64,000 bases of DNA from Escherichia coli (GTDB lineage: Bacteria > Pseudomonadota > Gammaproteobacteria > Enterobacterales > Enterobacteriaceae), in the NCBI RefSeq assembly GCF_003334355.1, contig NZ_QOWP01000005.1. One strand, given 5' to 3'. Position 1 is the stretch's first letter, and every line of letters begins with the position of its first letter. Below the pieces are notes generated by a model. It was not told the origin of the DNA. It did no database searches and saw only the letters and a program-made list of their open reading frames with translations. The position numbers and the translations under genes are program-made. This document shows, in pieces, positions 1,531-25,039 of the stretch.

Positions 1531-1588
<58 letters not shown>

Positions 1589-1631
1589 CAAATTTCGTGC
1601 GAATTACCGCTAAAATCGCGTTTTCCTGCCG

Positions 1632-1647
1632 ACGCACACGTTTGCGT
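1632..1647. promoter_or_regulatory. PurR operator (PUR box) upstream of purC
   Basis: Near-palindromic acgcacacgtttgcgt matches the PurR consensus ACGCAAACGTTTTCNT; sits in the purC 5' region. Confidence 0.6.
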
Positions 1648-1690
1648 ATCATATCAGAAAAAAGGGCCGGATGATTCCAGCCCTGTATTT

Positions 1691-2725
1691 TTACTTGCTA
1701 AACGCAGCCTGGAAGACAGCTACCAGCGCGTCGTTCTGACTCTGAGTCAGAGTATGACCTTTCGGATCGATGAACTGTAGGCTGCTGCGGTTATCTAAAT
1801 CGCCAACCTGCAGTTTATAGTCACCGGATGCCAGGCCTGGATCGCTCGCGCCCAGTTCCTGCCAGTCGCTGTCAGACAGCGGCTTATAAGTTACGGCCAT
1901 GTTGCCCTGCGAACGGGTGCTGTCGGTCACTTTCATGCCCACTTTTTCCAGCGCCGCTGGCAGACGTTGCCAAACCACATTGAACGGCCCGCGTACGACC
2001 AGCATTGGTAAACCGGTGTCATCAGCTGCACTTTGTACGTCCATAGTGGTGGAGGCACGATTTTGCGCAGCGTTCGCGGCGTCAGTGGCAGATTTATCCA
2101 GACCGGCGGAAATAACGTTCATCATCTCCGTGCTGTAACGCTGCATGGAAGCCGCGTCTGCAACCGGTTTGCCCGCCTGTTCCAGGTTCAGCAGTTTAAC
2201 CGTAACCGCCTGCTGATAACCCTGCGGCTTAACAGAGATTTGATAACGACCACGATACTGCTCGTCTTCGTCCAGACGGTTCCATTGTACCCAATCGGTG
2301 GTCAGTGTCTGACCAGCATCATCACGTTGGGTGATGGTGTAGTTTTTCGCCTGCAGCACGCTAACCACCTGCGGCCACAGAGTATTGCCACGACCATTTT
2401 CCACCAGCAATGAAGCGGTATCGCCCGTGAACTGGGTACGCGCGCCAGAAACCAGTGCCAGCGGCTGGGCTGGTGGACGAATGTCCAGCGCCTTACCGAC
2501 AGCACCACTACCGTTGGTCACCGGGATTGCATAATCACCGGAGGTCACCGGCAAAATCATTCCAGCCGGGGCATGAAGCTCCGCAAGCGGTGCCGCTTCC
2601 AGGTAGGCTTCATCACCACTGACCTGACGCTTATAGCGTGAGTCAGAACTACAGGCAGCGAGTAATAAAACAAGCGAAACACCCGCAACCTTTGCCAGGC
2701 GCGACTTTTGAACAGAGTAAGCCAT
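1691..2725 (-). CDS. bamC: Outer-membrane protein assembly factor BamC (lipoprotein NlpB)
   Basis: ORF 1691..2728; start at second Met gives 344 aa ([27 protein letters not shown]...) with a lipobox LLAAC. Confidence 0.95.
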
Positions 2726-2741
2726 CAAATCTCCCTAAACT

Positions 2742-3620
2742 TTACAGCAAACCGGCATGCTTAAGCGCCGCTCTGACCGTCTCACGACCACTGTCGGTGA
2801 TTGGTGTCATTGGCAGGCGCAGCGTATCGGTCGCCACAAGACCCAGTTCCTTACATGCCCATTTCACCGGGATTGGATTGGGTTCGACAAATAGTTTGTT
2901 GTGTAATGGCATCAGACGCTGATTAATAACGCGTGCCTCGGCAAAATGCCCTTCTGCTGCCAGTTTGCACATCTGGGCCATATCACGCGCTGCGACGTTA
3001 GCCGTAACGGAAATAACCCCATGACCGCCTAATTGCATGAAGTCCAGCGCGCTCGCATCATCGCCGCTCAGCAGAACAAAATCATCTGAAACCAGCTCTT
3101 TGATCTGGTTTACACGCGTTAAGTTCCCTGTTGCCTCTTTGATTCCGATAATATTTTTTACTTTCGCCAGACGGCCCACCGTTTCCGGGAGCAGATCGCA
3201 GCCAGTACGGGACGGCACATTATACAGAATTTGCGGCAGGTCAGTATGCTCAGCGATGGCTTTGAAATGCTGATACAAACCTTCTTGCGACGGACGATTG
3301 TAGTAAGGGGTTACCGTCAGGCAGCCGACGATACCACTGTCATTGAAGCGCTGCGTCAGGCTAATGGCTTCCGCAGTAGCGTTAGCGCCGGTCCCGGCAA
3401 TTACCGGAATGCGCCCATCAGCCAGATCCAGCGTCATCATCACCACATCAGCATGTTCGTCATGATTTAAGGTAGCGGACTCGCCAGTGGTGCCAACAGA
3501 AACGATCGCCGAAGTACCGCTGGCGACATGATAATCAATCAGTTTTTTCAAGCTAGCCCGACAGACATTACCTTTTTCATCCATCGGAGTAACAATCGCG
3601 ACAATACTTCCCGTGAACAT
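2742..3620 (-). CDS. dapA: 4-hydroxy-tetrahydrodipicolinate synthase
   Basis: ORF 2742..3638; start at internal Met ([19 protein letters not shown]...) gives 292 aa; GTTGES motif present. Confidence 0.95.
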
Positions 3621-3765
3621 GGGCCATCCTCTGTGCAAACAAGTGTCTCAATGGTACGTTTGGTATGGCATTAAAAGCAAGCAGACAGAACCGTTCTGAT
3701 TGTTGTATGCATGTTTTTTTTATGCTTTCCTTAAGAACAACTCACCCCTTAAAGGAATAACCAGT

Positions 3766-4338
3766 TTGACACTGTCATCGCAACATTATCTGGTGATCAC
3801 TGCGTTGGGTGCCGATCGCCCTGGAATTGTGAACACCATCACCCGTCATGTCAGTAGTTGCGGCTGTAATATTGAAGACAGTCGCCTGGCGATGCTGGGA
3901 GAAGAGTTCACGTTTATCATGCTGCTTTCCGGTTCATGGAATGCCATTACTCTGATTGAATCAACGTTACCGTTGAAAGGTGCAGAACTGGATCTTTTAA
4001 TCGTGATGAAGCGCACGACGGCGCGTCCGCGTCCGCCAATGCCAGCATCTGTCTGGGTTCAGGTCGATGTGGCAGACTCCCCGCATTTAATTGAACGCTT
4101 CACAGCACTTTTCGACGCGCATCATATGAACATTGCGGAGCTGGTGTCGCGCACGCAACCTGCTGAAAATGAACGGGCTGCGCAGTTGCATATTCAGATA
4201 ACCGCCCACAGCCCCGCATCTGCGGACGCAGCAAATATTGAGCAAGCGTTCAAAGCCCTATGTACAGAACTCAATGCACAAGGCAGTATTAACGTCGTCA
4301 ATTATTCCCAACATGATGAACAGGATGGAGTTAAGTAA
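3766..4338 (+). CDS. gcvR: Glycine cleavage system transcriptional repressor GcvR (ACT-domain protein)
   Basis: ORF 3700..4338; the conserved protein begins at TTG 3766 (…TLSSQHYLVITALGADRPGIV…), giving 190 aa. Its stop overlaps the bcp ATG by 1 nt. Confidence 0.85.
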   Translation: MTLSSQHYLVITALGADRPGIVNTITRHVSSCGCNIEDSRLAMLGEEFTFIMLLSGSWNAITLIESTLPLKGAELDLLIVMKRTTARPRPPMPASVWVQVDVADSPHLIERFTALFDAHHMNIAELVSRTQPAENERAAQLHIQITAHSPASADAANIEQAFKALCTELNAQGSINVVNYSQHDEQDGVK

Positions 4339-4808
4339 TGAATCCACTGAAAGCCGGTGATATCGCACCGAAATTTAGCTTGCCGGATCAAGACGGAGAA
4401 CAAGTTAATTTGACCGACTTCCAGGGACAGCGTGTTCTGGTTTATTTCTACCCGAAAGCCATGACCCCCGGCTGTACCGTACAGGCCTGCGGCTTACGCG
4501 ATAACATGGATGAGTTGAAAAAAGCGGGCGTTGATGTGCTGGGTATCAGCACCGATAAACCCGAAAAACTCTCCCGTTTTGCGGAAAAAGAGCTGCTTAA
4601 CTTTACGCTCCTGTCTGATGAGGACCACCAGGTGTGCGAACAATTCGGCGTCTGGGGTGAAAAGTCCTTCATGGGCAAAACCTACGATGGTATTCATCGC
4701 ATCAGCTTCCTGATTGACGCTGATGGCAAAATCGAACATGTCTTTGACGATTTCAAAACCAGCAATCACCACGACGTTGTGCTGAACTGGCTGAAAGAAC
4801 ACGCCTGA
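4338..4808 (+). CDS. bcp: Thiol peroxidase / peroxiredoxin Bcp
   Basis: 156-aa ORF MNPLKAGDIAPKFSLPDQDGEQV... with the peroxiredoxin active-site region TPGCTVQAC. Confidence 0.95.
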   Translation: MNPLKAGDIAPKFSLPDQDGEQVNLTDFQGQRVLVYFYPKAMTPGCTVQACGLRDNMDELKKAGVDVLGISTDKPEKLSRFAEKELLNFTLLSDEDHQVCEQFGVWGEKSFMGKTYDGIHRISFLIDADGKIEHVFDDFKTSNHHDVVLNWLKEHA

Positions 4809-5003
4809 TTACTCTGCTCCATTCCGTGCTGGCTGCGCTTGCGGCCAGCATACCTCACTTCTCGTGATCAAGATCACATTCTCGCTTTCCCCTGCGACAC
4901 GGGTGTCGAATCCATTTTTTGCTGAACGTTAATGACCATCATTTTTGTACCGTTCAGAATCCAGTCAATACATAACTTATTGAATATATTGAGTTAATCA
5001 GAA

Positions 5004-5019
5004 TGGCATCCTTTATGCA
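5004..5019 (+). promoter_or_regulatory. Sigma-54 (-24/-12) promoter of the hyf operon
   Basis: tggcatcctttatgca matches TGGCAC-N5-TTGCA with conserved GG and GC, about 40 bp upstream of hyfA; the operon also encodes the sigma-54 enhancer-binding protein HyfR. Confidence 0.6.
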
Positions 5020-5060
5020 ATATGAAATGCAATGTTTCATATCATTTTCAAGGAGCCGAC

Positions 5061-5678
5061 ATGAACCGCTTTGTGGTGGCCGAACCACTGTGGTGTACAG
5101 GATGTAATACCTGTCTCGCTGCCTGTTCGGACGTGCATAAAACGCAAGGTTTACAGCAACACCCGCGCCTGGCCCTGGCGAAGACGTCAACAATCACTGC
5201 CCCTGTCGTGTGTCATCACTGTGAGGAAGCCCCTTGCCTGCAGGTCTGCCCGGTCAATGCCATCTCTCAGAGGGATGATGCGATCCAACTCAACGAAAGC
5301 CTCTGTATTGGCTGCAAGCTTTGCGCCGTGGTCTGCCCATTTGGCGCAATCAGCGCTTCAGGAAGCCGTCCGGTGAATGCCCATGCGCAATATGTTTTTC
5401 AGGCTGAAGGCTCACTCAAAAACGGCGAAGAAAACGTGCTGCCCCAACATGCGTTGCTGCGCTGGGAACCGGGTGTCCAGACCGTCGCGGTGAAATGCGA
5501 CCTGTGTGATTTCTTGCCAGAAGGTCCGGCCTGCGTTCGCGCTTGCCCGAATCAGGCGTTACGGCTGATCACCGACGATAGCCTGCAACGTCAGATGAAA
5601 GAAAAACAGCGCCTTGCCGCAAGCTGGTTTGCCAATGGCGGGGAGGATCCCCTTTCCCTCACTCAGGAGCAACGCTAA
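5061..5678 (+). CDS. hyfA: Hydrogenase-4 component A, 4Fe-4S ferredoxin-type subunit
   Basis: ORF 5022..5678; start at MNRFVVAEPLWCTGCNTCLAAC gives 205 aa; several CxxCxxCxxxCP iron-sulfur motifs. Confidence 0.93.
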   Translation: MNRFVVAEPLWCTGCNTCLAACSDVHKTQGLQQHPRLALAKTSTITAPVVCHHCEEAPCLQVCPVNAISQRDDAIQLNESLCIGCKLCAVVCPFGAISASGSRPVNAHAQYVFQAEGSLKNGEENVLPQHALLRWEPGVQTVAVKCDLCDFLPEGPACVRACPNQALRLITDDSLQRQMKEKQRLAASWFANGGEDPLSLTQEQR

Positions 5679-7696
5679 TGGATGCCCTGCAATTATTAAC
5701 CTGGTCGCTGATCCTCTATCTGTTTGCCAGTCTGGCTTCGCTGTTTTTACTCGGTCTGGACAGACTGGCTATTAAGCTTTCCGGCATCACATCGCTGGTG
5801 GGCGGCGTGATTGGCATCATCAGCGGAATTACGCAATTACATGCTGGTGTAACTTTAGTCGCCCATTTTGCCACCCCTTTTGACTTTGCCGATTTAACCC
5901 TGCGAATGGATAGCCTCTCGGCATTTATGGTGCTGGTTATCTCCTTGCTGGTGGTGGTTTGTTCGCTCTATTCATTGACTTATATGCGCGAATACGAGGG
6001 CAAAGGCGCGGCGGCGATGGGCTTCTTTATGAATCTTTTCATCGCATCGATGGTTGCCCTGCTGGTGATGGACAACGCTTTTTGGTTCATCGTGCTGTTT
6101 GAAATGATGTCGCTGTCTTCCTGGTTTCTGGTCATTGCCAGGCAGGATAAAACGTCGATCAACGCTGGCATGCTCTACTTTTTTATCGCCCACGCCGGAT
6201 CGGTGCTGATAATGATCGCCTTCTTGCTGATGGGGCGCGAAAGCGGCAGCCTCGATTTTGCCAGTTTCCGCACGCTTTCACTTTCTCCGGGGCTGGCGTC
6301 GGCGGTGTTCCTGCTGGCCTTTTTCGGTTTTGGCGCGAAAGCCGGGATGATGCCGTTGCACAGCTGGTTGCCGCGCGCTCACCCTGCCGCACCATCGCAC
6401 GCTTCAGCGTTGATGTCTGGCGTAATGGTCAAAATCGGTATTTTCGGCATCCTGAAAGTGGCGATGGATCTGCTGGCGCAAACGGGTTTGCCGCTGTGGT
6501 GGGGCATTCTGGTGATGGCGATCGGCGCAATCTCCGCGCTCCTGGGCGTGCTGTATGCGCTGGCGGAACAGGATATCAAACGGCTACTGGCCTGGAGTAC
6601 CGTCGAAAACGTCGGCATTATTTTGCTGGCGGTCGGTGTGGCGATGGTCGGTCTGTCACTGCACGACCCGCTGCTCACCGTGGTTGGACTGCTCGGCGCA
6701 CTGTTTCATCTGCTCAACCATGCGCTGTTCAAAGGGCTGCTATTTCTCGGCGCGGGCGCGATTATTTCGCGTTTGCATACCCACGACATGGAAAAAATGG
6801 GGGCACTGGCGAAACGGATGCCGTGGACAGCCGCAGCATGCCTGATTGGTTGCCTGGCGATATCAGCCCTTCCTCCGCTGAATGGTTTTATCAGCGAATG
6901 GTACACCTGGCAGTCGCTGTTCTCACTAAGTCGTGTGGAAGCCGTAGCGCTACAACTTGCGGGTCCTATTGCTATGGTAATGCTGGCAGTCACTGGTGGG
7001 CTGGCAGTAATGTGCTTCGTAAAAATGTACGGTATTACTTTCTGTGGTGCGCCGCGCAGTACACACGCTGAAGAGGCACAGGAAGTGCCAAATACGATGA
7101 TCGTCGCCATGCTACTGCTCGCGGCACTCTGCGTATTAATTGCGCTTAGTGCCAGTTGGCTGGCACCGAAGATAATGCATATTGCCCATGCGTTTACCGA
7201 TACCCCTCCCGTCACTGTCGCCAGCGGAATAGCACTTGTACCCGGCACGTTTCATACACGGGTCACTCCTTCATTACTGTTGCTGTTACTACTGGCGATG
7301 CCTTTGCTGCCTGGCCTTTACTGGCTGTGGTGTCGTTCGCGCCGCGCAGCGTTTCGTCGCACAGGAGATGCCTGGGCATGCGGCTACAGCTGGGAAAATG
7401 CGATGGCCCCGTCAGGCAATGGCGTGATGCAGCCGCTGCGTGTGGTCTTTTCTGCGCTATTTCGTCTACGACAACAGCTCGACCCTACGCTGAGGCTAAA
7501 TAAAGGTCTTGCGCACGTCACCGCCAGGGCTCAGAGCACAGAACCCTTCTGGGATGAGCGGGTGATCCGCCCCATCGTGAGCGCCACCCAACGGCTGGCC
7601 AAAGAAATACAGCATCTGCAAAGCGGCGACTTTCGTCTCTATTGCCTGTATGTGGTCGCCGCACTGGTTGTGCTGCTAATCGCTATTGCCGTCTAA
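5678..7696 (+). CDS. hyfB: Hydrogenase-4 component B, NuoL/HycC-like membrane antiporter subunit
   Basis: 672-aa polytopic membrane ORF (MDALQLLTWSLILYLFASL...); its ATG overlaps the hyfA stop. Confidence 0.93.
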   Translation: MDALQLLTWSLILYLFASLASLFLLGLDRLAIKLSGITSLVGGVIGIISGITQLHAGVTLVAHFATPFDFADLTLRMDSLSAFMVLVISLLVVVCSLYSLTYMREYEGKGAAAMGFFMNLFIASMVALLVMDNAFWFIVLFEMMSLSSWFLVIARQDKTSINAGMLYFFIAHAGSVLIMIAFLLMGRESGSLDFASFRTLSLSPGLASAVFLLAFFGFGAKAGMMPLHSWLPRAHPAAPSHASALMSGVMVKIGIFGILKVAMDLLAQTGLPLWWGILVMAIGAISALLGVLYALAEQDIKRLLAWSTVENVGIILLAVGVAMVGLSLHDPLLTVVGLLGALFHLLNHALFKGLLFLGAGAIISRLHTHDMEKMGALAKRMPWTAAACLIGCLAISALPPLNGFISEWYTWQSLFSLSRVEAVALQLAGPIAMVMLAVTGGLAVMCFVKMYGITFCGAPRSTHAEEAQEVPNTMIVAMLLLAALCVLIALSASWLAPKIMHIAHAFTDTPPVTVASGIALVPGTFHTRVTPSLLLLLLLAMPLLPGLYWLWCRSRRAAFRRTGDAWACGYSWENAMAPSGNGVMQPLRVVFSALFRLRQQLDPTLRLNKGLAHVTARAQSTEPFWDERVIRPIVSATQRLAKEIQHLQSGDFRLYCLYVVAALVVLLIAIAV

Positions 7697-7706
7697 GGAA
7701 ATCACC

Positions 7707-8653
7707 ATGAGACAAACTCTTTGCGACGGATATCTGGTCATTTTTGCGTTAGCACAGGCCGTGATTCTGCTGATGCTAACCCCACTTTTTACGGGTATTT
7801 CCCGGCAGATACGCGCGCGTATGCACTCCCGCCGCGGGCCGGAGATCTGGCAGGATTATCGCGATATCCACAAACTGTTTAAACGCCAGGAAGTTGCGCC
7901 TATATCTTCAGGTCTGATGTTCCGCCTGATGCCGTGGGTATTAATCAGCAGCATGCTGGTGCTGGCGATGGCCCTACCACTATTTATTACCGTTTCCCTT
8001 TTGCGGGCGGCGGCGATCTGATCACCCTTATCTATCTTCTTGCCCTGTTTCGTTTTTTCTTTGCTCTTTCAGGGCTGGATACCGGAAGCCCGTTTGCGGG
8101 AGTCGGTGCCAGTCGCGAGTTGACGCTCGGCATTCTGGTCGAACCCATGCTCATTCTCTCACTGCTGGTATTGGCGCTGATAGCGGATTCCACGCATATC
8201 GAGATGATCAGCAATACGCTGGCGATGGGCTGGAACTCGCCGCTAACCACCGTACTGGCGTTACTGGCCTGTGGTTTTGCCTGCTTCATAGAGATGGGAA
8301 AAATTCCCTTTGATGTTGCTGAAGCAGAACAGGAATTACAGGAAGGCCCGCTGACCGAATATTCCGGTGCCGGGCTGGCGTTGGCGAAATGGGGACTGGG
8401 GCTGAAACAGGTCGTGATGGCAGCACTGTTTGTGGCCCTGTTTCTGCCCTTTGGGCGCGCGCAAGAACTTTCTCTCACCTGCCTGCTGACTTCACTTGTC
8501 GTTACGCTGCTCAAGGTTTTGCTGATTTTTGTACTGGCTTCAATCGCAGAAAACACGCTGGCACGCGGGCGTTTTTTACTCATTCACCATGTGACCTGGC
8601 TTGGCTTCAGCCTTGCTGCGCTTGCATGGGTCTTCTGGTTAACCGGTCTGTAA
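7707..8653 (+). pseudogene. hyfC: Hydrogenase-4 component C (HycD/NuoH-like membrane subunit), reading frame interrupted
   Basis: N-terminal part MRQTLCDGYLVIFALAQ... (frame of 7707) ends at TGA 8019-8021; the rest (...FPFAGGGDLITLIYLL...WVFWLTGL*) is open only in the -1 frame (track ORF 7934..8653). The span is 947 nt, one base short of an intact 316-codon gene; the break sits at the ccc/tttt run 7996-8002. Confidence 0.85.
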
Positions 8654-8669
8654 GGAGCACTGACGGAAT

Positions 8670-10108
8670 ATGGAAAATCTTGCTCTGACGACGTTAATGC
8701 TGCCTTTTATCGGCGCACTGGTCGTTTCGTTTTCGCCACAACGTCGGGCCGCCGAATGGGGGTTTTGTTCGCCGCACTGACCACGCTGTGCATGTTGTCG
8801 CTGATCTCCGCGTTTTATCAGGCCGATAAAGTTGCCGTCACGTTGACGTTGGTCAACGTGGGGGATGTGGCATTGTTTGGCCTGGTCATTGATCGCGTGA
8901 GTACGCTGATTCTGTTTGTGGTGGTGTTTCTCGGTTTGCTGGTCACGATCTACTCCACGGGTTATCTGACGGATAAAAATCGCGAACACCCGCATAACGG
9001 CACGAATCGTTATTACGCATTTTTGCTGGTGTTTATCGGCGCGATGGCGGGACTGGTACTCTCCTCGACGCTGCTCGGTCAGTTGTTGTTTTTTGAAATT
9101 ACGGGCGGCTGCTCCTGGGCGTTGATCAGTTATTACCAGAGCGATAAAGCGCAGCGTTCAGCACTAAAAGCGTTACTTATCACTCATATCGGCTCGTTGG
9201 GGTTGTATCTTGCCGCCGCCACGCTGTTTTTGCAGACCGGAACGTTTGCGCTTAGCGCGATGAGCGAGTTACACGGCGACGCACGTTATCTGGTTTATGG
9301 CGGCATCCTGTTTGCCGCGTGGGGGAAATCGGCCCAGCTACCGATGCAAGCGTGGCTACCGGACGCAATGGAAGCGCCAACACCGATCAGCGCCTATCTC
9401 CACGCCGCATCGATGGTGAAAGTGGGCGTTTACATTTTTGCCCGCGCCATTATCGACGGCGGCAATATCCCGCATGTGATTGGCGGCGTTGGCATGGTCA
9501 TGGCCCTGGTCACCATTCTTTATGGATTTCTGATGTATTTACCACAGCAGGATATGAAGCGGTTGCTGGCCTGGTCGACCATCACTCAACTTGGCTGGAT
9601 GTTCTTCGGCTTGTCGCTCTCCATCTTCGGCTCGCGGCTGGCGCTGGAGGGTAGCATCGCCTACATCGTCAACCACGCGTTCGCTAAAAGCCTGTTTTTC
9701 CTTGTAGCAGGTGCGCTGAGTTACAGCTGCGGCACGCGCTTGTTGCCGCGTCTGCGTGGCGTATTGCACACCCTGCCGTTGCCTGGCGTGGGTTTCTGCG
9801 TGGCAGCGCTGGCAATTACCGGCGTGCCGCCGTTCAACGGCTTCTTCAGTAAATTCCCGCTGTTTGCTGCCGGTTTTGCGTTGTCAGTGGAGTACTGGAT
9901 CCTGCTGCCCGCCATGATTCTGCTGATGATTGAATCGGTCGCCAGTTTCGCCTGGTTTATTCGCTGGTTTGGTCGCGTCGTGCCTGGCAAACCGAGCGAG
10001 GCCGTCGCCGATGCCGCACCGCTGCCAGGGTCAATGCGCCTGGTGTTGATTGTACTGATTGTGATGTCGCTGATTTCCAGCGTAATCGCCGCGACCTGGT
10101 TGCAGTAA
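8670..10108 (+). pseudogene. hyfD: Hydrogenase-4 component D (NuoM/N-like membrane subunit), reading frame interrupted
   Basis: An SD (aggag) plus ATG at 8670 encodes MENLALTTLMLPFIGALVVSFSPQRRAAEW... and stops at TGA 8778-8780; the main body (GVLFAALTTLCMLS...ATWLQ*) continues in the -1 frame to 10108 (track ORF 8756..10108). The span is 1439 nt, one base short of an intact 480-codon gene; the break is at the G5 run 8758-8762. Confidence 0.85.
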
Positions 10109-10119
10109 GGAGATGATGA

Positions 10120-10770
10120 ATGACCGGTTCTATGATCGTAAATAATCTGGCGGGACTGATGATGCTGACATCACTGTTTGTGATTAGCGTCAAAAGCTAT
10201 CGCCTGTCATGCGGATTTTACGCCTGCCAGTCACTGGTGCTGGTGTCTATTTTCGCCACCCTCTCGTGCCTGTTCGCCGCAGAGCAACTGCTGATCTGGT
10301 CCGCCAGCGCCTTTATCACCAAAGTGCTGCTGGTACCGTTAATCATGACTTACGCTGCACGAAATATTCCCCAGAACATCCCGGAAAAAGCGTTATTCGG
10401 TCCGGCAATGATGGCACTGCTCGCGGCGTTAATTGTCCTGCTTTGCGCATTTGTCGTTCAGCCCGTGAAGCTACCGATGGCTACCGGGCTGAAACCGGCG
10501 CTGGCGGTAGCGTTAGGTCATTTTCTGCTTGGCCTGCTGTGCATTGTCAGCCAGCGCAATATCCTGCGGCAAATTTTTGGTTACTGCCTGATGGAAAACG
10601 GCTCCCATCTGGTGCTGGCGCTTCTTGCCTGGCGAGCACCGGAACTGGTGGAAATAGGTATCGCTACCGACGCCATCTTCGCCGTCATTGTGATGGTGTT
10701 ACTGGCAAGAAAAATATGGCGTACCCACGGCACGCTGGACGTGAACAACTTGACCGCGCTGAAGGGATAA
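10120..10770 (+). CDS. hyfE: Hydrogenase-4 component E (small integral membrane subunit)
   Basis: 216-aa hydrophobic [27 protein letters not shown]... Confidence 0.92.
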
Positions 10771-10774
10771 TGAG

Positions 10775-14060: not shown

Positions 14061-14069
14061 GGACAGAAG

Positions 14070-15776: not shown

Positions 15777-15805
15777 GAAGGATTTCTCATTAATAAGGAC
15801 TGTTG

Positions 15806-17818
15806 ATGGCTATGTCAGACGAGGCGATGTTTGCCCCGCCGCAAGGAATAACAATTGAAGCGGTAAACGGAATGCTCGCGGAGCGGTTAGCGCAGAAACA
15901 CGGTAAGGCGTCTTTATTACGCGCCTTCATCCCGCTGCCGCCGCCGTTCAGCCCGGTACAACTTATTGAACTGCATGTTCTCAAAAGCAACTTCTATTAC
16001 CGCTACCATGATGATGGCAGCGATGTGACGGCAACAACAGAGTATCAGGGCGAGATGGTCGATTATTCGCGTCACGCCGTCCTTCTCGGCAGTAGTGGAA
16101 TGGCGGAGCTACGCTTTATTCGCACCCACGGCAGTCGTTTTACTCCCCAGGATTGCACACTGTTTAACTGGCTGGCGCGGATAATCACCCCGGTTCTGCA
16201 ATCATGGCTCAATGATGAAGAACAGCAGGTGGCGCTGCGTTTGCTGGAGAAAGATCGCGATCATCATCGGGTACTGGTTGATATTACTAATGCAGTGCTG
16301 TCACATCTTGATCTCGACGATCTGATCGCTGACGTCGCTCGTGAGATCCATCATTTTTTCGGTCTGGCTTCAGTCAGTATGGTACTGGGCGATCATCGAA
16401 AGAACGAGAAGTTTAGCCTGTGGTGCAGCGATCTTTCTGCCTCACATTGTGCGTGTCTGCCACGCAATATGCCTGGCGACAGTGTATTGCTGACACAAAC
16501 GCTACAAACCCGACAACCGACCTTGACGCACCGTGCAGACGATCTGTTTCTCTGGCAACGCGACCCGTTATTACTCTTACTTGCATCTAACGGCTGCGAA
16601 TCTGCGCTCCTTATACCGCTTACCTTTGGCAACCATACACCGGGTGCATTGTTGCTGGCGCATACCTCTTCCACTCTCTTTAGTGAGGAAAACTGCCAGC
16701 TACTACAACACATAGCCGATCGCATCGCTATTGCCGTTGGCAATGCCGATGCCTGGCGTAGCATGACCGATTTGCAGGAAAGTTTGCAGCAAGAAAACCA
16801 CCAGCTTAGCGAGCAGCTCCTTTCGAATCTGGGCGTCGGTGACATTATCTATCAAAGCCAGGCAATGGAAGACCTGCTCCAGCAGGTAGATATTGTGGCG
16901 AAGAGCGACAGTACAGTGTTGATTTGTGGTGAAACCGGAACCGGCAAAGAGGTGATCGCCAGAGCGATCCATCAACTTAGCCCGCGACACGACAAGCCGC
17001 TGGTCAAAATCAACTGCGCTGCCATCCCCGCCAGTCTTCTGGAAAGTGAGTTATTCGGTCATGACAAAGGGGCGTTTACTGGTGCGATTAATACCCATCG
17101 TGGTCGTTTTGAAATTGCCGATGGCGGCACGTTGTTTCTCGATGAAATTGGCGATCTGCCGTTAGAACTTCAGCCTAAACTGCTGCGCGTATTGCAGGAA
17201 CGGGAGATTGAGCGTCTCGGCGGGAGTAGAACGATCCCGGTGAATGTCAGAGTCATTGCCGCCACCAACCGTGATTTGTGGCAAATGGTTGAAGATCGCC
17301 AGTTTCGCAGCGATCTCTTTTATCGCCTGAATGTCTTCCCACTGGAATTGCCGCCGCTACGCGACCGTCCGGAAGATATCCCTCTTTTAGCAAAGCATTT
17401 CACGCAAAAAATGGCGCGCCATATGAATCGTTCAATTGACGCCATCCCGACCGAGGCGCTACGCCAGTTGATGTCGTGGGACTGGCCGGGCAACGTGCGC
17501 GAGCTGGAAAACGTGATTGAGCGAGCGGTACTGCTGACTCGCGGTAACAGTCTGAATTTACATCTTAATGTCCGACAAAGCCGTTTACTGCCGACGCTAA
17601 ATGAAGATTCAGCGCTTCGCAGTTCAATGGCGCAGTTGCTGCACCCGACGACGCCAGAGAATGACGAAGAAGAACGTCAGCGCATTGTTCAGGTATTGCG
17701 AGAAACCAATGGCATTGTTGCCGGGCCCCGTGGCGCGGCGACACGATTAGGGATGAAGCGCACCACGCTGCTGTCACGAATGCAGCGTCTGGGGATCTCG
17801 GTTCGCGAGGTGTTGTAA
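15806..17818 (+). CDS. hyfR: Sigma-54-dependent transcriptional activator of the hyf operon (FhlA paralog)
   Basis: 670 aa from MAMSDEAMF...; AAA+ sigma-54 interaction domain with Walker A GETGTGKE and the GAFTGA motif ([15 protein letters not shown]); C-terminal HTH. Confidence 0.93.
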
Positions 17819-17839
17819 TCTGCTTTTGCAGGAGTATGC

Positions 17840-18688
17840 ATGAGCAACAAACTCTCTTTCGACTTGCAGTTGAGCGCCAGAAAAGCGGCAATCGCTGAAC
17901 GGATTGCCGCCCATAAAATTGCCCGCAGTAAAGTGTCGGTCTTTTTAATGGCGATGTCCGCTGGCGTGTTTATGGCGATCGGATTTACTTTTTACCTTTC
18001 CGTTATCGCCGATGCCCCGTCTTCACAGGCATTAACCCATCTGGTGGGCGGCCTTTGCTTTACACTCGGCTTTATTTTGCTGGCGGTTTGCGGCACCAGC
18101 CTGTTCACCTCGTCGGTAATGACGGTGATGGCAAAAAGTCGGGGCGTTATTAGTTGGCGAACTTGGCTGATTAACGCACTTCTGGTGGCCTGCGGTAATC
18201 TGGCAGGTATTGCCTGTTTCAGTTTGTTAATCTGGTTTTCCGGGCTGGTGATGAGTGAAAACGCGATGTGGGGAGTCGCGGTTTTACACTGCGCCGAGGG
18301 CAAAATGCATCATACATTTACTGAATCTGTCAGCCTCGGCATTATGTGCAATCTGATGGTTTGCCTGGCGCTTTGGATGAGTTATTGCGGGCGTTCGTTA
18401 TGCGACAAAATCGTCGCCATGATTTTGCCCATCACCCTGTTTGTCGCCAGTGGCTTTGAGCACTGTATCGCCAATTTGTTTGTGATTCCGTTCGCCATTG
18501 CCATTCGCCATTTCGCCCCTCCCCCCTTCTGGCAACTGGCGCACAGTAGCGCAGACAATTTTCCGGCACTGACGGTAAGCCATTTTATTACCGCCAATCT
18601 GCTCCCGGTGATGCTGGGTAATATTATCGGCGGTGCAGTGCTGGTGAGTATGTGTTATCGGGCTATTTATTTACGTCAGGAATCCTGA
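17840..18688 (+). CDS. focB: Formate channel FocB (formate/nitrite transporter family)
   Basis: 282-aa membrane ORF (MSNKLSFDLQLSARKAAIAER...), last gene of the hyf cluster. Confidence 0.9.
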   Translation: MSNKLSFDLQLSARKAAIAERIAAHKIARSKVSVFLMAMSAGVFMAIGFTFYLSVIADAPSSQALTHLVGGLCFTLGFILLAVCGTSLFTSSVMTVMAKSRGVISWRTWLINALLVACGNLAGIACFSLLIWFSGLVMSENAMWGVAVLHCAEGKMHHTFTESVSLGIMCNLMVCLALWMSYCGRSLCDKIVAMILPITLFVASGFEHCIANLFVIPFAIAIRHFAPPPFWQLAHSSADNFPALTVSHFITANLLPVMLGNIIGGAVLVSMCYRAIYLRQES

Positions 18689-18693
18689 AAAAT

Positions 18694-18722
18694 CAGCCCG
18701 GCGAAACAGTTCGTCGGGCTGA
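18694..18722. terminator. Bidirectional intrinsic terminator between convergent focB and perM
   Basis: GC-rich hairpin cagcccggcg-aaacagtt-cgtcgggctg with A-rich and T-rich flanks, lying in the 37-bp gap between the two convergent stop codons. Confidence 0.6.
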
Positions 18723-18725
18723 AGA

Positions 18726-19787
18726 TTATTCTTGCGCTATTTGCCCATCGGGCCAGGCGTGGATCACGGCTTTGATCAGGGTCGCCAATGGAATGGCGAA
18801 GAATACGCCCCAGAATCCCCACAAACCACCGAAGATCACCACCGATAAAATAATCACCAGCGGATGCAGGTTAACCGCTTCGGAGAACAACACCGGTACT
18901 AACAGGTTGCCGTCCAGCGCCTGAATAATCAGATACACTGCGAAGCAGCTCCAGAATTCCGTGCCTGCACCAAACTGGAATAGCGCCACGCCAACCACCG
19001 GAATGGTCACCACAAATGCGCCAATGTACGGAATAAGTACCGAGAAGCCGACCAGCACCGCCAGCAGCAGCGAATAGTTCAGCCCAAAGAGCAAGAACCC
19101 CAGCCAGGTGGCGATCCCCACCACGATCATCTCCAGCACTTTGCCGCGGATATAGTTGGTGATTTGTTGATTCATCTCCTTCCACACCTGTCCTGCCAGT
19201 CCACGGTTGCGCGGCAGCACCCGACGAACGGCGTTCAGCATCTGCTCTTTGTCTTTCAGCAGGAAGAAGACCATCAATGGCACCAGCACCAGATAGACGG
19301 CTATGGTCAGCAAACCGACCAGCGAGGCGAGGGAAATTTTCACCACCGAATCGCCCATGGTCAGCATCCGACTGCGCATATTTTCGGCCATTGCATCAAT
19401 AATGCCCGCATCCATTAACGCCGGATAGCGGCGCGGCAACGTGGCGGCAAAGTCAGAAAGCTTATTGAGCATCCCCGGCATATCGCGGATTAAGTAGATG
19501 CCCTGTTGCCAGGCGATAGGCAGTACCACGAACGCCATCAGTAGCAATATACCGACGAAAACCACCAATACAATCGACGTCGCCCAGCGGCGGGAGCAGC
19601 CAATAGATTGCAGGCGCACGGTTGGCCATTCCAGCAAATAGGCCAGCACAATAGCCACCAGCAACGGAGCAAGCAGGCCACTAAAGAAAAAGATAATGCC
19701 AAATCCGGCAACTAAAATAACCAGCAAGGCAATCGCTTCCGGGTCGCTAAAACGGCGGCGATACCATTGCATCAACATTTCGAGCAT
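18726..19787 (-). CDS. perM: AI-2E family transporter PerM (YfgO), putative permease
   Basis: 353-aa polytopic membrane ORF MLEMLMQWYRRRFSDPEAIALLVILVAGF... Confidence 0.9.
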   Translation of the reverse strand: MLEMLMQWYRRRFSDPEAIALLVILVAGFGIIFFFSGLLAPLLVAIVLAYLLEWPTVRLQSIGCSRRWATSIVLVVFVGILLLMAFVVLPIAWQQGIYLIRDMPGMLNKLSDFAATLPRRYPALMDAGIIDAMAENMRSRMLTMGDSVVKISLASLVGLLTIAVYLVLVPLMVFFLLKDKEQMLNAVRRVLPRNRGLAGQVWKEMNQQITNYIRGKVLEMIVVGIATWLGFLLFGLNYSLLLAVLVGFSVLIPYIGAFVVTIPVVGVALFQFGAGTEFWSCFAVYLIIQALDGNLLVPVLFSEAVNLHPLVIILSVVIFGGLWGFWGVFFAIPLATLIKAVIHAWPDGQIAQE

Positions 19788-19999
19788 AAAGACCTTCCCT
19801 GAACCTCAAGAGCGGGATTGCGATCAGCAATTGTATCGAAATGTCACAAAAAAGACTTCGCTTTTTATGACGGATTCAGGAAACTGAAAAGTCATTTGAG
19901 TGGGCTAATCTTCGCCGTTACACTCAAAGGCGGCGCGGTGGGAACGATATTTCACAGTATCGGTCAAATGACTATCTTCAGAAATACAGGATAGAGGTT

Positions 20000-21463
20000 A
20001 TGTTCAGGCAGTTGAAAAAAAACCTGGTTGCAACCCTCATTGCTGCTATGACCATTGGTCAGGTAGCCCCGGCGTTTGCCGACAGCGCAGACACCTTGCC
20101 GGATATGGGAACCTCCGCAGGAAGCACGCTTTCCATTGGTCAGGAAATGCAGATGGGCGACTATTATGTCCGCCAGCTACGCGGCAGCGCGCCGTTAATT
20201 AATGACCCGCTGTTAACGCAATATATTAATTCGCTGGGGATGCGTCTGGTTTCGCATGCCAATTCGGTTAAGACACCGTTTCATTTTTTTCTGATCAACA
20301 ACGACGAAATTAACGCCTTTGCTTTCTTTGGCGGCAACGTGGTGCTGCACTCTGCCCTGTTCCGTTATTCCGATAACGAAAGTCAACTGGCTTCAGTTAT
20401 GGCGCACGAAATCTCCCACGTCACCCAACGTCACCTGGCGCGAGCGATGGAAGATCAGCAGCGCAGCGCGCCGCTGACCTGGGTCGGCGCGTTAGGTTCT
20501 ATTTTACTGGCGATGGCCAGTCCGCAGGCGGGGATGGCGGCACTGACCGGTACACTGGCGGGAACGCGCCAGGGAATGATCAGCTTCACCCAGCAAAATG
20601 AACAGGAAGCGGACCGCATTGGTATTCAGGTGCTGCAACGCTCGGGATTCGATCCGCAGGCGATGCCAACCTTCCTCGAAAAATTACTCGATCAGGCGCG
20701 TTACTCCTCGCGCCCGCCGGAAATTTTATTGACTCACCCGTTGCCGGAAAGTCGTCTGGCAGATGCCCGCAACCGTGCTAATCAGATGCGCCCGATGGTG
20801 GTGCAGTCGTCGGAAGATTTCTATCTGGCGAAAGCGCGCACACTGGGGATGTATAATTCCGGACGTAACCAGCTCACCAGTGATTTGCTGGATGAATGGG
20901 CGAAAGGAAACGTTCGTCAGCAACGAGCAGCACAATATGGTCGTGCTTTACAGGCGATGGAAGCCAATAAATACGACGAGGCGCGTAAAACGCTGCAACC
21001 GTTACTGGCGGCAGAACCTGGCAACGCATGGTATCTCGATCTGGCTACTGATATCGATCTTGGGCAAAACAAAGCCAATGAGGCGATCAATCGTCTGAAA
21101 AATGCCCGCGATTTACGCACCAATCCGGTGTTGCAGCTCAACCTGGCGAACGCTTATCTGCAAGGCGGTCAACCACAAGAAGCGGCCAATATTCTGAATC
21201 GCTACACCTTTAATAATAAAGATGACAGCAACGGCTGGGATTTGCTGGCACAGGCGGAAGCCGCGCTAAATAACCGCGATCAGGAACTGGCTGCGCGAGC
21301 AGAAGGTTATGCGCTCGCCGGGCGACTCGATCAGGCCATTTCGCTGTTGAGTAGCGCCAGTTCGCAGGTGAAATTAGGCAGCCTGCAACAAGCGCGTTAC
21401 GATGCGCGCATCGACCAGTTGCGCCAGCTGCAGGAACGCTTTAAGCCTTATACCAAGATGTAA
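20000..21463 (+). CDS. bepA: Periplasmic beta-barrel assembly-enhancing protease BepA (M48 metalloprotease with TPR domain)
   Basis: 487-aa ORF with signal peptide ([27 protein letters not shown]) and HEISH (HExxH) zinc motif. Confidence 0.93.
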
Positions 21464-21483
21464 TTCGCATTAAAGGAAGAACA

Positions 21484-21843
21484 ATGACCAAACAGGTAAA
21501 AATCTACCATAACCCACGCTGTTCAAAGAGCCGGGAAACGCTGAACCTGCTGAAAGAAAACGGCGTGGAGCCAGAAGTGGTGCTCTACCTTGAGACACCC
21601 GCCGATGCGGCAACGCTGCGCGATTTGCTGAAAATGCTGGGGATGAATAGCGCCCGTGAATTGATGCGCCAGAAAGAGGATCTTTATAAAGAACTGAACC
21701 TGGCTGACAGTTCGCTTAGCGAAGAGGCGCTGATTCAGGCAATGGTGGATAATCCGAAGCTAATGGAGCGCCCGATTGTGGTCGCGAATGGCAAAGCGCG
21801 GATTGGTCGTCCACCGGAGCAGGTACTGGAAATCGTGGGTTAA
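21484..21843 (+). CDS. yfgD: ArsC-family arsenate reductase-like protein YfgD
   Basis: 119-aa ORF MTKQVKIYHNPRCSKSRETLNLL... with the catalytic Cys in the N-terminal CxxS context. Confidence 0.9.
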   Translation: MTKQVKIYHNPRCSKSRETLNLLKENGVEPEVVLYLETPADAATLRDLLKMLGMNSARELMRQKEDLYKELNLADSSLSEEALIQAMVDNPKLMERPIVVANGKARIGRPPEQVLEIVG

Positions 21844-21869
21844 GATGTGCTCCATCGCTAGTTGAAGCA

Positions 21870-21970
21870 CATTGCCGGATGCGACGCTTGCCACGTCTTA
21901 TCCGGCCTACGAATACTATGGATTAACTTCGCGTAGTTCGGATAAGGCGTTCGCGCCGCATCCGACAATA
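21870..21970. repeat. Pair of REP elements in inverted orientation
   Basis: gccggatgcgacgcttgccacgtcttatccggcctac (21874-21910) and gcgtagttcggataaggcgttcgcgccgcatccgaca (21931-21967) between convergent yfgD and hda. Confidence 0.75.
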
Positions 21971-21980
21971 AACACCTTAT

Positions 21981-22727
21981 CTACAACTTCAGAATTTCTT
22001 TCACAAACGGAATGGTCAGCTTACGTTGCGCGGTAATCGACGCACGATCCAACTGATCCAACGTCATAAATAGCGTGCGCATTTCTCTGTCGAGCCGCTT
22101 CAGCAAGAAACGCCCCACATCTTCCGGCAGTTCAAAACCACGCAAACGCGCGCGTAACTGTAGCGCCTGCAACTTATCTTCATCAGAAAGTGGCTGCAAT
22201 TTGTAGATCTGCCCCCAGTCGAGTCGCGAAGCGAGATCCGGTAATCCCAGATTCAACTGCCGCGGTGGACGATCGCCGGTGATCAACAATCGTGTTTTGC
22301 CCGATTCCAGAATTCGATTGTAGAGATCGAAAATCGCCATCTCCCACAACTCATCGCCTGCAATACACTCAATATTGTCGATACAGACCAGCGACAAATG
22401 CTCCATACCGTCGAGCACTTCCGGAACAAACCAGGTGCGTTTATCCAGCGGGACATAGCCCACCGCATCGCCACGCTGCGACAATTCCGCGCAAGCCGCG
22501 TGCAGCAGATGGCTGCGCCCCGCGCCTTCGCGTGCCCAGAGATAGATGTAACCGCTATGTTCCTGACGCAGCACGTTTTGCAGCGCAGCCAGTAAAGAGG
22601 AGTTATCCCCCGGCCAGAAACTTGCAAAGGTTTCGTCGTCAGGAAGATAAAGTGGCAAAGAGAGCTGTGCCGGTGTGTTCAGAGATACCTCAACCAGGAT
22701 TTCACAAAATCGCGAGAAGTTTACCAC
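21981..22727 (-). CDS. hda: DnaA regulatory inactivator Hda (AAA+)
   Basis: Track ORF of 248 aa ([31 protein letters not shown]...). The mature E. coli protein is reported to start at the internal CTG (LNTPAQ…, here 22680-22682), giving 233 aa. Confidence 0.9.
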
Positions 22728-22776
22728 AGAATCCCATGATGTTTGAACCGGGCAGCAACACTGCCCGGTCGGTACA

Positions 22777-24066
22777 TTATTTGTCTGTTATATCCGCGTC
22801 TTCTGCGTCCAGCACCACTTCTTCAGGGCGCAGCACACTAATCAGTTTGAAGATCAAACTTAAGCCGATACCGACGATGGTCGCCAGCGCCATACCTTTT
22901 AACTCCGCCGCGCCGATGTTTACCTTCGCGCCACTGACGCCGATGATCAAAATCACGGAAGTCAGGATCAGGTTCTGTGCTTTGTTGTAATCCACTTTCG
23001 ATTCGATCAAAACACGAATACCGGAAGCACCGATGACACCATAAAGCAGCAGCGAAACGCCGCCCATCACCGGCAATGGGATCATCTGGATAGCGGCAGC
23101 CAGTTTACCGACGCAGGAAAGCAGGATAGCGAAAATCGCCGCCCCGCCGATAACCCAGGTACTGTAAACACGGGTGATCGCCATCACGCCAATGTTTTCT
23201 CCGTAAGTGGTATTTGGCGTAGAGCCAAAGAAGCCGGAAATCACGGTCGACAAGCCATTAGCAAACATCGAACGGTGCAGACCTGGATCGCGCAGCAGAT
23301 CTTTTTTGACGATATTAGCCGTTACTACCAGGTGCCCTACGTGTTCGGCAATAACCACTAACGCCGCTGGCAGAATAGTCAGAATGGCAAACCACTCGAA
23401 GCGCGGCGTATAGAGGGTTGGCAGCGCAAACCAGTGAGCATTAATAATCGGCGTGGTATCGACAATTCCCATTGCGAAAGAGAGCGCGTAGCCCACCAGC
23501 ACGCCAATTAAAATCGGGATAATTGCCAGGAAACCACGAAACAGCACGGAACCTAAAACCGTGACCGCCAGGGTGGTAATAGAGATGATGATGGTTTTGG
23601 AGTCTGGCGTTTGCCCTTCAGCCGGGAGTAAACCCGCCATACCGGCAGCTACGCCCGCCAGCTCCAGACCGATGACGGCAACGATTGCGCCCATTGCCGC
23701 AGGTGGAAACAGCACGTCCAGCCAGCCGGTCCCCGCTTTCTTCACGATAAAAGAAACCAGGCAGAACAGCACGCCGCACATAATAAAGCCGCCCAGCGCG
23801 ACTTCATACCCTAACGGCAACAGTAACAATACCGGTGAAATAAAGGCAAAGCTGGAACCAAGATAAGCCGGAATTTTCCCTTTACAGATGAAGAGATACA
23901 GCAGCGTTCCAATACCGTTAAATAACAGTACAGTCGCCGGGTTAATATGAAATAAGACGGGCACCAGGACGGTTGCACCAAACATGGCGAACAAATGTTG
24001 CAAACTAAGCGGGATTGTCTGTAAAAGTGGCGGTCTTTCACTCACCCCGATAGCACGGCGCGTCAT
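22777..24066 (-). CDS. uraA: Uracil:H+ symporter (NCS2 family)
   Basis: Track ORF 22777..24108; start at internal Met ([33 protein letters not shown]...) gives 429 aa. Confidence 0.93.
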
Positions 24067-24151
24067 AGTATTATCCTCTGTATTATGTGTTATAGGCGCT
24101 TTACTCAAAAAAAAGCCGACTCTTAAAGTCGGCTTTAATTATTTTTATTCT

Positions 24152-24778
24152 TTATTTCGTACCAAAGATTTTGTCACCGGCATCGCCGAGGCCCGGAATA
24201 ATGTATCCGTGCTCGTTCAGTCCCTGATCAATCGATGCGGTATACAGTTCGACGTCCGGGTGCGCTTTTTCCAGCGCAGCGATACCTTCTGGCGCAGCGA
24301 CCAGCACCAGAACTTTGATGCTGCTGCAGCCCGCTTTTTTCAGCAGGTCGATGGTCGCGATAACGGAACCACCGGTTGCCAGCATTGGGTCAACGATCAG
24401 CGCCATACGCTCATCGATGTTAGAAACCAGTTTCTGGAAGTACGGTACCGGCTCCAGCGTTTCTTCATTACGGTACATACCGACAACGCTGATGCGCGCG
24501 CTCGGAACGTTTTCCAGCACACCGTCCATCATACCAAGACCCGCACGCAGAATTGGCACAACGGTAATTTTCTTACCTTTGATCTGGTCGATTTCTACCG
24601 GGCCGTTCCAGCCTTCGATAGTTACTTTTTCCGTTTCGAGGTCGGCGGTCGCTTCGTAAGTCAGCAGGCTACCCACTTCGGAAGCGAGTTCGCGAAAGCG
24701 CTTGGTGCTGATATCTTGCTCACGCATCAGTCCCAGCTTGTGTTTGACGAGTGGGTGTTTGACTTCCACGATCTTCAT
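24152..24778 (-). CDS. upp: Uracil phosphoribosyltransferase
   Basis: Track ORF 24152..24805; start at [21 protein letters not shown] gives 208 aa. Confidence 0.95.
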
Positions 24779-25023
24779 ACTCTTTCTCCTTTGAGGGGCA
24801 GCCACAAAAAAAATCGACGGATTATACCTCCTTTCTTCAAGGCGGCAATATTCTTTTCGTTGACTTTAGTCAAAATGATAACGGTTTGAGATAAAGTTAT
24901 TTTATATTCAAATGGTTACGAAAGAAGATTATTCCATCCGAAAACTAACCTTTACCCTGGTACAAGTCTTCTTTCGCCGCGCGCCTGGGCAAAAGACGTG
25001 CAAAAAGGTTGTGTAAAGCAGTC

Positions 25024-25039
25024 TCGCAAACGTTTGCTT
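25024..25039. promoter_or_regulatory. PurR operator (PUR box) of the purMN operon
   Basis: tcgcaaacgtttgctt, a near-perfect match to the PurR consensus, about 65 bp upstream of purM. Confidence 0.7.

Follow-up and report, generated by a model that had tools for sequence, protein, structure and literature searches.

PurR operators upstream of purC and purMN, and further PurR sites, in a 64-kb window of Escherichia coli

Introduction

The 16-mers upstream of purC and purMN in this E. coli strain are PurR operators (PUR boxes), at which the bound repressor blocks RNA polymerase at both promoters when purines are plentiful; the probability of this reading is put at about 97%. PurR is a dimer of the LacI family, and it binds DNA only in the form loaded with hypoxanthine or guanine. 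The term window is used here for the whole 64-kb stretch of DNA that was analysed. The original prediction assigned purC and purMN to the purine regulon from two 16-mers, and these read ACGCACACGTTTGCGT at 1632-1647 and TCGCAAACGTTTGCTT at 25024-25039, in the gene context that it described; purC is on the minus strand and purM on the plus strand. Its account of the operators, of regulon membership and of guaBA, upp-uraA and ppk-ppx as neighbours, the last confirmed by annotation, is sound; its closing claim that no further boxes are present is not.

Both operators are already known and are textbook examples. Meng, Kilstrup and Nygaard (1990, as cited in PMC3159470) were the first to report regulation of purC and purMN, and the title of their paper names both. 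In Cho 2011 (NAR 39:6456, PMC3159470), the IMP-pathway genes that PurR-hypoxanthine represses include purC and purMN. The PhyloScan paper makes no mention of these genes.

Window and annotation

The window is from an E. coli strain other than K-12 and is 99.96% identical to PSS-12 over positions 1-25000 and 99.6% identical to ATCC 8739 over positions 25001-50000. Genes in the early part of the window were taken from the RefSeq annotation of PSS-12. This annotation is unfit beyond ~32 kb because the window lacks an IS3 and an ~18-kb island of PSS-12, and the ATCC 8739 annotation was therefore substituted. The features are collected in Table 1.

Table 1. Positions of PurR boxes and neighbouring features in the window
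Feature	Position	Strand	Remarks
purC CDS (SAICAR synthase)	765-1478	-	RefSeq annotation; Pfam PF01259 in homologues
Core of REP-type repeat in purC 5' leader	1548-1571		between operator and start codon
purC PurR operator (PUR box)	1632-1647	-	gene strand ACGCAAACGTGTGCGT; top matrix match
Putative extended -10 of purC promoter, TGaTATGAT	1648-1656	-	by eye; directly abuts operator
bamC intrinsic terminator hairpin	1663-1684	-	terminator scan; immediately upstream of purC promoter and operator
bamC CDS	1691-2725		annotation
PUR-like box in first ~20 codons of perM (yfgO)	19727-19742	-	CCGGAAGCGATTGCCT; matrix 13.78
Candidate PUR-box match inside uraA, codons Gly126-Val131	23675-23690		ACGGCAACGATTGCGC; strong match, matrix 18.11, p = 4e-7
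purMN PurR operator (PUR box)	25024-25039	+	TCGCAAACGTTTGCTT; matrix 16.94, rank 3
Putative purM -10 hexamer, TAGAAT	25047-25052	+	by eye
purM CDS	25103-26140	+	annotation
purN CDS	26140-26778	+	annotation
guaBA PurR operator	38032-38047	-	gene strand ATGCAATCGGTTACGC; matrix 15.16; between -35 position and TATAAT at 38027-38022

Motif scores

The PUR box is a 16-bp imperfect palindrome near ACGCAAACGTTTGCGT with a central CG, and both the purC and the purMN box have this form, with one mismatch to the palindrome at 1632-1647 and two at 25024-25039. A search with the bare consensus that allowed up to 3 mismatches gave 3 matches versus 0.76 expected and was equalled in 3 of 100 shuffles. This search alone is too weak to establish significance and a weight matrix was therefore used in its place, which was built from 24 published ChIP-bound sites with the four sites of this window left out. 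The scores of the training sites span 11.5-25.7 bits. The purC box scores 18.65 bits (p = 3e-7 per position) and ranks first of the ~128,000 positions in 64 kb on both strands, and the purMN box ranks third (p = 9e-7 per position), so a position-weight-matrix scan, which had been proposed as a check on the original prediction, places both among its top scores. There is a statistical excess, with 3 sites of at least 16.94 bits observed per 64 kb on both strands versus expectations of 0.11 (i.i.d. model) and 0.25 (first-order Markov model). The motif score alone is not decisive, because chance would give ~0.1-0.25 sites as strong as that of purM in 64 kb, and significance rests on the weighted matrix combined with the promoter positions and conservation.

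Promoter positions and occupancy

The purC box starts 169 nt upstream of the purC start codon. Salmonella and Klebsiella have shorter leaders (131 and 66 nt, respectively), and the 169-nt leader of E. coli includes a REP-type 24-mer that is found in three copies in the window (0-1 mismatch) versus 0 expected. The purM box starts 79 nt upstream of the purM start codon and 7 nt upstream of TAGAAT, the putative -10 hexamer; a 17-nt spacer from this hexamer would place the purM -35 position at 25024-25029, within the operator. A Rfam search of the purC and purM leaders gave no match. The exact hexamers and start sites of both promoters are inferred, because the hexamers were read by eye and were not reported by a consensus promoter scan, which found no sigma-70 -35/-10 pair at the purC box and no sigma-70 site at the purM box. 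A TGnTAAGAT motif similar to the putative purC -10 element is kept in Salmonella.

From these positions the purC operator would directly follow the -10 element and cover the probable transcription start, and the purMN operator would cover the -35 position, so that a bound repressor would exclude RNA polymerase from each. PurR would thus be bound when purines are plentiful, keeping RNA polymerase off both promoters, and would be released when purines are scarce. PurR sites are generally located between the -35 and -10 elements (Cho 2011, PMC3159470).

In vivo occupancy of both boxes by PurR, and its enhancement by adenine, are known from the literature. The purC motif in Table 1 of Cho 2011 is letter-identical to the 16-mer in the window, and its ChIP-chip log2 enrichment is 2.08, the top value, with adenine and 1.52 without (PMC3159470). 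The purM-purN motif is likewise identical to the window's box, and its peak, which is assigned to purM-purN, has a log2 enrichment of 2.08 (also the top value) with adenine and 0.98 without (PMC3159470). Published ChIP data, the other check proposed for the original prediction, therefore list both sites with adenine-raised enrichment and support the assignment of purC and purMN to the regulon.

Conservation

Of 5424 E. coli genomes, 5400 have an exact match to the 50-mer around the purM box, and the purC 16-mer is unchanged in two aligned variant E. coli strains, whose variants lie outside the 16-mer and the -10 element. All 41 Enterobacterales loci, all 12 from Vibrionales, both from Aeromonas and 10 of 12 from Pasteurellales have the purM box, at a distance of 69-148 bp upstream of purM. 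This makes 65 of 67 loci in orders with a PurR regulon versus none of 13 loci in other orders (Orbales, Alteromonadales and allies), at a background rate of 0.006 sites per upstream region. The purM box is thus kept in exactly the orders that have the PurR regulon and absent elsewhere, and this distribution agrees with the published distribution of PurR orthologues. The upstream purC box is not universal: it is present in 8 of 13 sampled Enterobacterales, and outside E. coli it occurs in Salmonella and Klebsiella, which carry the same 16-mer, and in Serratia, Morganella, Providencia, Erwinia and one Pantoea. The remaining five have a box after the stop codon.

These results bear on two other explanations of the boxes. 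The first is that the matches are chance palindromes without a regulatory role, as the modest result of the consensus search and the coding-region matches of 12-14 bits in the window (hyfD, hda) might suggest, the latter indicating that chance matches do occur. Against this, the weighted p values are ~3e-7 and 9e-7, both sites are located at purine-gene promoters, the purM box is conserved in four orders well above background, and ChIP-chip occupancy has been published for both (PMC3159470); chance is already effectively refuted and retains next to no probability. The second is that the main protein at these boxes is not PurR but another LacI-family regulator whose motif resembles that of PurR, for example GalR or RbsR, the paralogue closest to PurR. 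Published work indicates that PurR arose from RbsR with retention of the DNA motif and that the PurR operators at purR itself overlap with GalR ChIP peaks, but the published GalR ChIP list has no site at purC, purM or guaB, the boxes follow the phylogenetic range of PurR and not the wider range of RbsR, and the adenine-dependent occupancy at both boxes is that of PurR (PMC3159470), which makes another regulator very improbable. PurR remains the regulator assigned to both operators.

Further PurR sites in the window

The literature supports at least four PurR sites in the window instead of two, at purC, purMN, guaB and perM (yfgO), contrary to the claim that no unexpected additional PUR boxes are present. 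The gene guaB was named in the original prediction, and it has a published PUR box of its own: the guaB-guaA motif in Cho 2011 is identical to the box at 38032-38047 (PMC3159470). The published PurR site overlaps the guaB core promoter, and 5413 of 5424 E. coli genomes contain an exact copy of a 50-mer at this box. The perM box lies within the published PurR ChIP-chip region yfgO/yfgC, which is in front of functionally unrelated genes and is listed in Table 1 of Cho 2011 with a log2 enrichment of 1.18, with adenine only (PMC3159470).

The second-strongest match in the whole window is located inside uraA and is a candidate only. It has no entry in the ChIP-chip list of Cho 2011 (PMC3159470). 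Of 29 orthologues with the same encoded peptide, only 4 keep the exact sequence, the region is 8th of 197 comparable six-codon windows, and a conserved operator in uraA was dropped as a firm claim.

The uraA mRNA reportedly falls 17.6-fold with adenine and changes 2-fold in a purR deletion; its dependence on PurR is reported without a known site. This behaviour, together with the location of the 25024-25039 box within the 324-bp intergenic region shared by upp and purM, raises the possibility that this box controls the divergent upp-uraA operon, besides or instead of purMN. Such control is improbable, since the one site that resembles a promoter for upp, at 24848-24821, is ~175 bp away from the box, the distance between box and purM is constant where upp is absent, e.g. 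in Pasteurellales, and Cho 2011 gives the peak to purM-purN (PMC3159470). The box is accordingly assigned to purMN.

Comparison with known systems

The operators of E. coli K-12 (Cho 2011, NAR 39:6456, PMC3159470) have the same 16-mers, genes and orientation as those of the window. The spacings of the purC/yfgO/purM/guaB sites are 18,095/23,392/13,008 bp in the window versus 18,049/23,346/13,006 bp in K-12, which agree within 46 bp. There is no difference of substance between the two sets of operators, and only the strain differs. The purC and purM operators of the window are promoter-proximal and would act on initiation, unlike the intragenic roadblock operators of purB and purR (Cho 2011, Ravcheev 2014). 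The candidate uraA box and the perM box are located inside coding sequence, as is that of purB.

A second position for the purC box

Outside the window, a PUR box follows the purC stop codon by 3 nt, just before the terminator hairpin, in Dickeya, Musicola, Brenneria, Photorhabdus and Pantoea sp. 1.19, and also on 8 metagenomic contigs. This arrangement is absent from the window. All carriers of the 3' box lack an upstream box, and the 8 upstream-box taxa all lack a 3' box, so that no examined taxon has both. A metagenome scan with a DNA pattern for stop codon plus box returned 120 stretches, only 9 of which are purC 3' ends, and the rest are chance matches from a very large collection. A narrow literature search found no described 3' PUR box.

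It is a tentative and rather doubtful suggestion that the purC PurR operator has two alternative working positions in Enterobacterales, either at the promoter or 3 nt past the stop codon. SsrA tagging of LacI was reportedly described by Abo et al. in 2000. By analogy with LacI at O3, the 3' site, if functional, could be a roadblock at which polymerase halts ahead of the stop codon or the terminator, so that purC transcripts would be non-stop or unprotected. The LacI O3 roadblock at the lacI 3' end, as cited in PMC3711431, features an operator at the very end of the coding sequence, like the putative 3' purC boxes.

Significance

Confirmation of the two operators does no more than validate purC and purMN as annotated PurR targets and matters little for this window. 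The useful corrections are the count of at least four PurR sites and the strong candidate intragenic match in uraA. The alternation of the purC box between the 5' and 3' positions, if functional, would add modestly but genuinely to what is known of how LacI-family repressors are deployed.

PurR operators upstream of purC and purM

The two 16-mers proposed in the original prediction, ACGCACACGTTTGCGT upstream of purC and TCGCAAACGTTTGCTT upstream of purM, are present when read directly from the window, with one and two mismatches, respectively, to the perfect palindrome ACGCAAACGTTTGCGT. The window is E. coli chromosome: positions 1-25000 align without gaps at 99.96% identity to strain PSS-12 and positions 25001-50000 at 99.6% identity to ATCC 8739. 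The annotation of these strains, from which the gene coordinates in the table were carried over, also bears out the predicted inventory of guaBA, upp-uraA, and ppk-ppx. PSS-12, the closest strain over 1-25000, carries an IS3 element in pdeF (window ~32290) and, between yfgI and guaA (window ~34870), an integrase/RepA/Trb island of ~18 kb that includes defence-like genes; both are missing from the window. Both hyfC and hyfD seem to be frameshifted, and the annotation of the near-identical PSS-12 labels them frameshifted pseudogenes; hydrogenase 4 may truly be inactivated, or the assembly may be in error. Rfam matches to three sRNAs bear no relation to the PUR boxes.

Positions of genes, PUR-like matches and promoter features (gene coordinates from strain annotation; bits from the PurR weight matrix)
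Feature	Position	Strand	Detail
purC	765-1478	minus	ATG at 1478
REP-type repeat, purC leader	1527-1592		core 1548-1571; other copies 21940-21963, 58947-58970
purC upstream box	1632-1647		18.65 bits
TGaTATGAT	1656-1648	minus	putative purC -10 element
Terminator hairpin	1684-1663	minus	after bamC stop
bamC	1691-2725	minus
hyfC	7707-8653		947 bp; apparent 1-bp frameshift, early in-frame stop
hyfD	8670-10108		1439 bp; apparent 1-bp frameshift, early in-frame stop
Match within hyfD	9236-9251		14.27 bits
Match at start of perM/yfgO	19727-19742		13.78 bits
Match within hda	22140-22155		12.19 bits
Match within uraA	23675-23690		18.11 bits
upp	24152-24778	minus
upp promoter-like site	24848-24821		consensus scan
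purM upstream box	25024-25039		16.94 bits
purM -35 position	25024-25029		putative
TAGAAT	25047-25052		putative purM hexamer
purM	25103-26140	plus	start codon GTG at 25103
purN	26140-26778	plus
ppk, ppx	3' of purN
guaA	34866-36443	minus
guaB	36512-37978	minus
guaB TATAAT	38027-38022
guaB promoter box	38032-38047		15.16 bits
sroE	44502-44593		Rfam
IS128	57422-57630		Rfam
ryfA	57762-58065		Rfam
purC 3' box, loci L085, L086, L091, L094	2217-2232		locus coordinates
purC 3' box, locus L089	992-1007		locus coordinates

A plain consensus search of the whole window (up to 3 mismatches) gave 3 matches against 0.76 expected, a number equalled in 3 of 100 shuffles. Because this search is not convincing by itself, a weight matrix was built from motif sites inside the PurR ChIP-chip peaks of Cho et al. 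2011 (Table 1, PMC3159470); four of the 28 sites were left out because they lie in the window, leaving 24, and both strands were scanned. The purC and purM boxes rank first and third in the window, with per-position probabilities of 3.0e-7 and 8.9e-7 from exact score distributions. Three sites reach at least 16.94 bits, against an expectation of 0.11 from i.i.d. bases or 0.25 from a first-order Markov simulation, and six reach at least 13.78 bits, where 0.7-1.6 are expected. The number of matches such as those within hyfD and hda is within chance expectation, and both are absent from the published ChIP list.

Published occupancy and additional boxes

For purC and purM-purN, the PurR motifs listed by Cho et al. 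(PMC3159470) are these very 16-mers, and their ChIP-chip peaks cover both. With adenine, both peaks are at the maximal log2 enrichment of 2.08, and without adenine the values are 1.52 for purC and 0.98 for purM-purN. The assignment of purC and purMN to the purine regulon is therefore correct in its core, and was already known. The statistics, the conservation described below, and these ChIP data together rule out chance matches for the two boxes.

The claim that there are no additional PUR boxes does not hold, since guaB has its own box, another in the perM/bepA region is bound in ChIP, and uraA contains the second-best matrix match. Cho et al. report CCGGAAGCGATTGCCT in the yfgO/yfgC region (enrichment 1.18, only with adenine) and GCGTAACCGATTGCAT in the guaB-guaA region (enrichment 0.84), and both motifs are found in the window, where the spacing of the four published sites agrees with K-12 coordinates within 46 bp. 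The guaB operator, which the original prediction did not list although it named guaBA, sits between the -35 position and TATAAT, ending 4 nt upstream of the latter; a guaB PurR site overlapping the core promoter has been described independently. The 50-mer that surrounds this operator is unchanged in 5413 of 5424 E. coli genomes. The box of the yfgO/yfgC region lies outside the perM/bepA intergenic region and inside the perM coding sequence, at codons 16-21, 45-60 nt after the ATG.

The uraA match, ACGGCAACGATTGCGC, lies ~376 nt from the start of the gene and spans codons Gly126-Val131. All 29 orthologues compared share the peptide GAIVAV, and the exact box DNA is kept in 4 of them (a Citrobacter, an Enterobacter, Rahnella inusitata, and Serratia silvae), compared with ~0.8 expected from a gene-wide codon identity of ~0.55; the region ranks 8th in conservation among 197 comparable six-codon windows. 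Cho et al. report no ChIP peak at this box; uraA mRNA falls 17.6-fold with adenine and changes 2.04-fold in a purR deletion, an effect called "direct or indirect" (PMC3159470). A purB-like roadblock at this site is improbable.

Promoter architecture

On the minus strand, the bamC stop is followed by a terminator hairpin, a T-run, and TGaTATGAT, which directly adjoins the purC operator; a 153-nt leader with a REP-type repeat follows. Read by eye, TGaTATGAT is a putative -10 element, and a start site ~7 nt past it would fall inside the operator. At purM, the operator is followed by a 7-nt gap and TAGAAT, and the putative -35 position, also read by eye with a 17-nt spacer, lies inside the operator. 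A consensus promoter scan reported these elements at neither gene.

The REP core occurs in three copies in the window where none is expected, and the repeat stretches the E. coli purC leader to 169 nt; the Salmonella and Klebsiella leaders measure 131 and 66 nt. The 50-mer around the purC box is exact in 2474 E. coli genomes and carries one or two changes in 2927; in two aligned variants neither the 16-mer nor the -10 element is altered. In strain ETEC1701 (L097) the stretch upstream of the -10 element that holds the 3' end of bamC and the terminator (window ~1657-1724) has given way to unrelated sequence, with the operator and -10 element intact.

Conservation of the purM box

A single scan of species-representative genomes yielded 80 PurM loci. 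A box scoring 13 bits or more and no further than 200 bp upstream of purM is found in all 41 Enterobacterales (positions -69 to -148), 12/12 Vibrionales, 10/12 Pasteurellales, and 2/2 Aeromonas, and in none of 2 Orbales or 11 Alteromonadales and allies, against a background of 0.006 such boxes per upstream region in the same loci. This distribution matches the published range of PurR orthologues, namely Enterobacterales, Pasteurellales, and Vibrionales (Ravcheev 2014), with Aeromonas as a small addition. The Aeromonas boxes (L060 and L074) lie at about -92 from purM and score 15.4 and 21.8 bits, in a genus outside the PurR range of Ravcheev 2014. The phylogenetic range of the boxes, together with the GalR ChIP list, makes it unlikely that another LacI-family protein acts at them. 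Of 5424 E. coli genomes, 5400 carry an exact copy of the 50-mer around the purM box. The box could also be thought to control the divergent upp; this is unlikely, since the upp promoter-like site is ~175 bp away, a distance that favours purMN over upp as the target of the box, and the box-to-purM spacing is constant in taxa without a nearby upp.

A 3' box at purC in other Enterobacterales

The purC loci of 12 other Enterobacterales were compared with that of E. coli. A strong upstream box is present in E. coli and in 7 of the 12 (Salmonella, Klebsiella, Serratia marcescens, Morganella, Providencia, Erwinia aphidicola, and Pantoea sp. MBD-2R), the 16-mer being identical to that of E. coli in Salmonella and Klebsiella. 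The upstream box is absent in Pantoea sp. 1.19, Dickeya, Musicola, Brenneria goodwinii, and Photorhabdus (best score at most 2.6 bits in the three measured), and these same five feature an 18.5-22.5-bit box that begins 3 nt past the purC stop codon. It is mostly followed by a hairpin, with a clear T-run terminator in Brenneria and Photorhabdus. None of the eight taxa with an upstream box has a 3' box. The genes downstream vary (ypfJ, DUF441, an ABC transporter, or a convergent gene), so the 3' box is tied to the end of purC rather than to the gene that follows. Searching metagenomes for the DNA pattern added 8 complete purC genes with a 3' box (L133, L113, L189, L196, L099, L162, L147, and L176). 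None of these has a box in the 400 bp upstream (top score 9.6 bits, others below 4), and they bring the range of 3' scores to 18.5-23.3 bits; over taxa and contigs together, a hairpin comes after most of the 3' boxes. The two positions are thus mutually exclusive across the 13 taxa and 8 contigs, some of them close relatives; collapsed to ~7 lineages, the permutation probability of perfect exclusivity is ~1/35.

The arrangement, for which a narrow literature search found no description, resembles LacI at O3 in that the operator of a LacI-family protein lies where a coding sequence ends. Work by Abo et al. in 2000 reportedly found that LacI at O3 gives non-stop mRNA and SsrA tagging. LacI at O3 is also a roadblock on lacI transcription (cited in PMC3711431), and by analogy the purC 3' box may possibly act as a roadblock.

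Repression of purC and purMN

DNA binding by PurR is established to require its ligand (restated in Cho 2011, PMC3159470, and Ravcheev 2014). PurR loaded with hypoxanthine or guanine would occupy the purC and purMN operators and, once bound, would shut RNA polymerase out of both promoters; with a probability of about 97%, ligand-loaded PurR binds the two operators and excludes RNA polymerase in this way.
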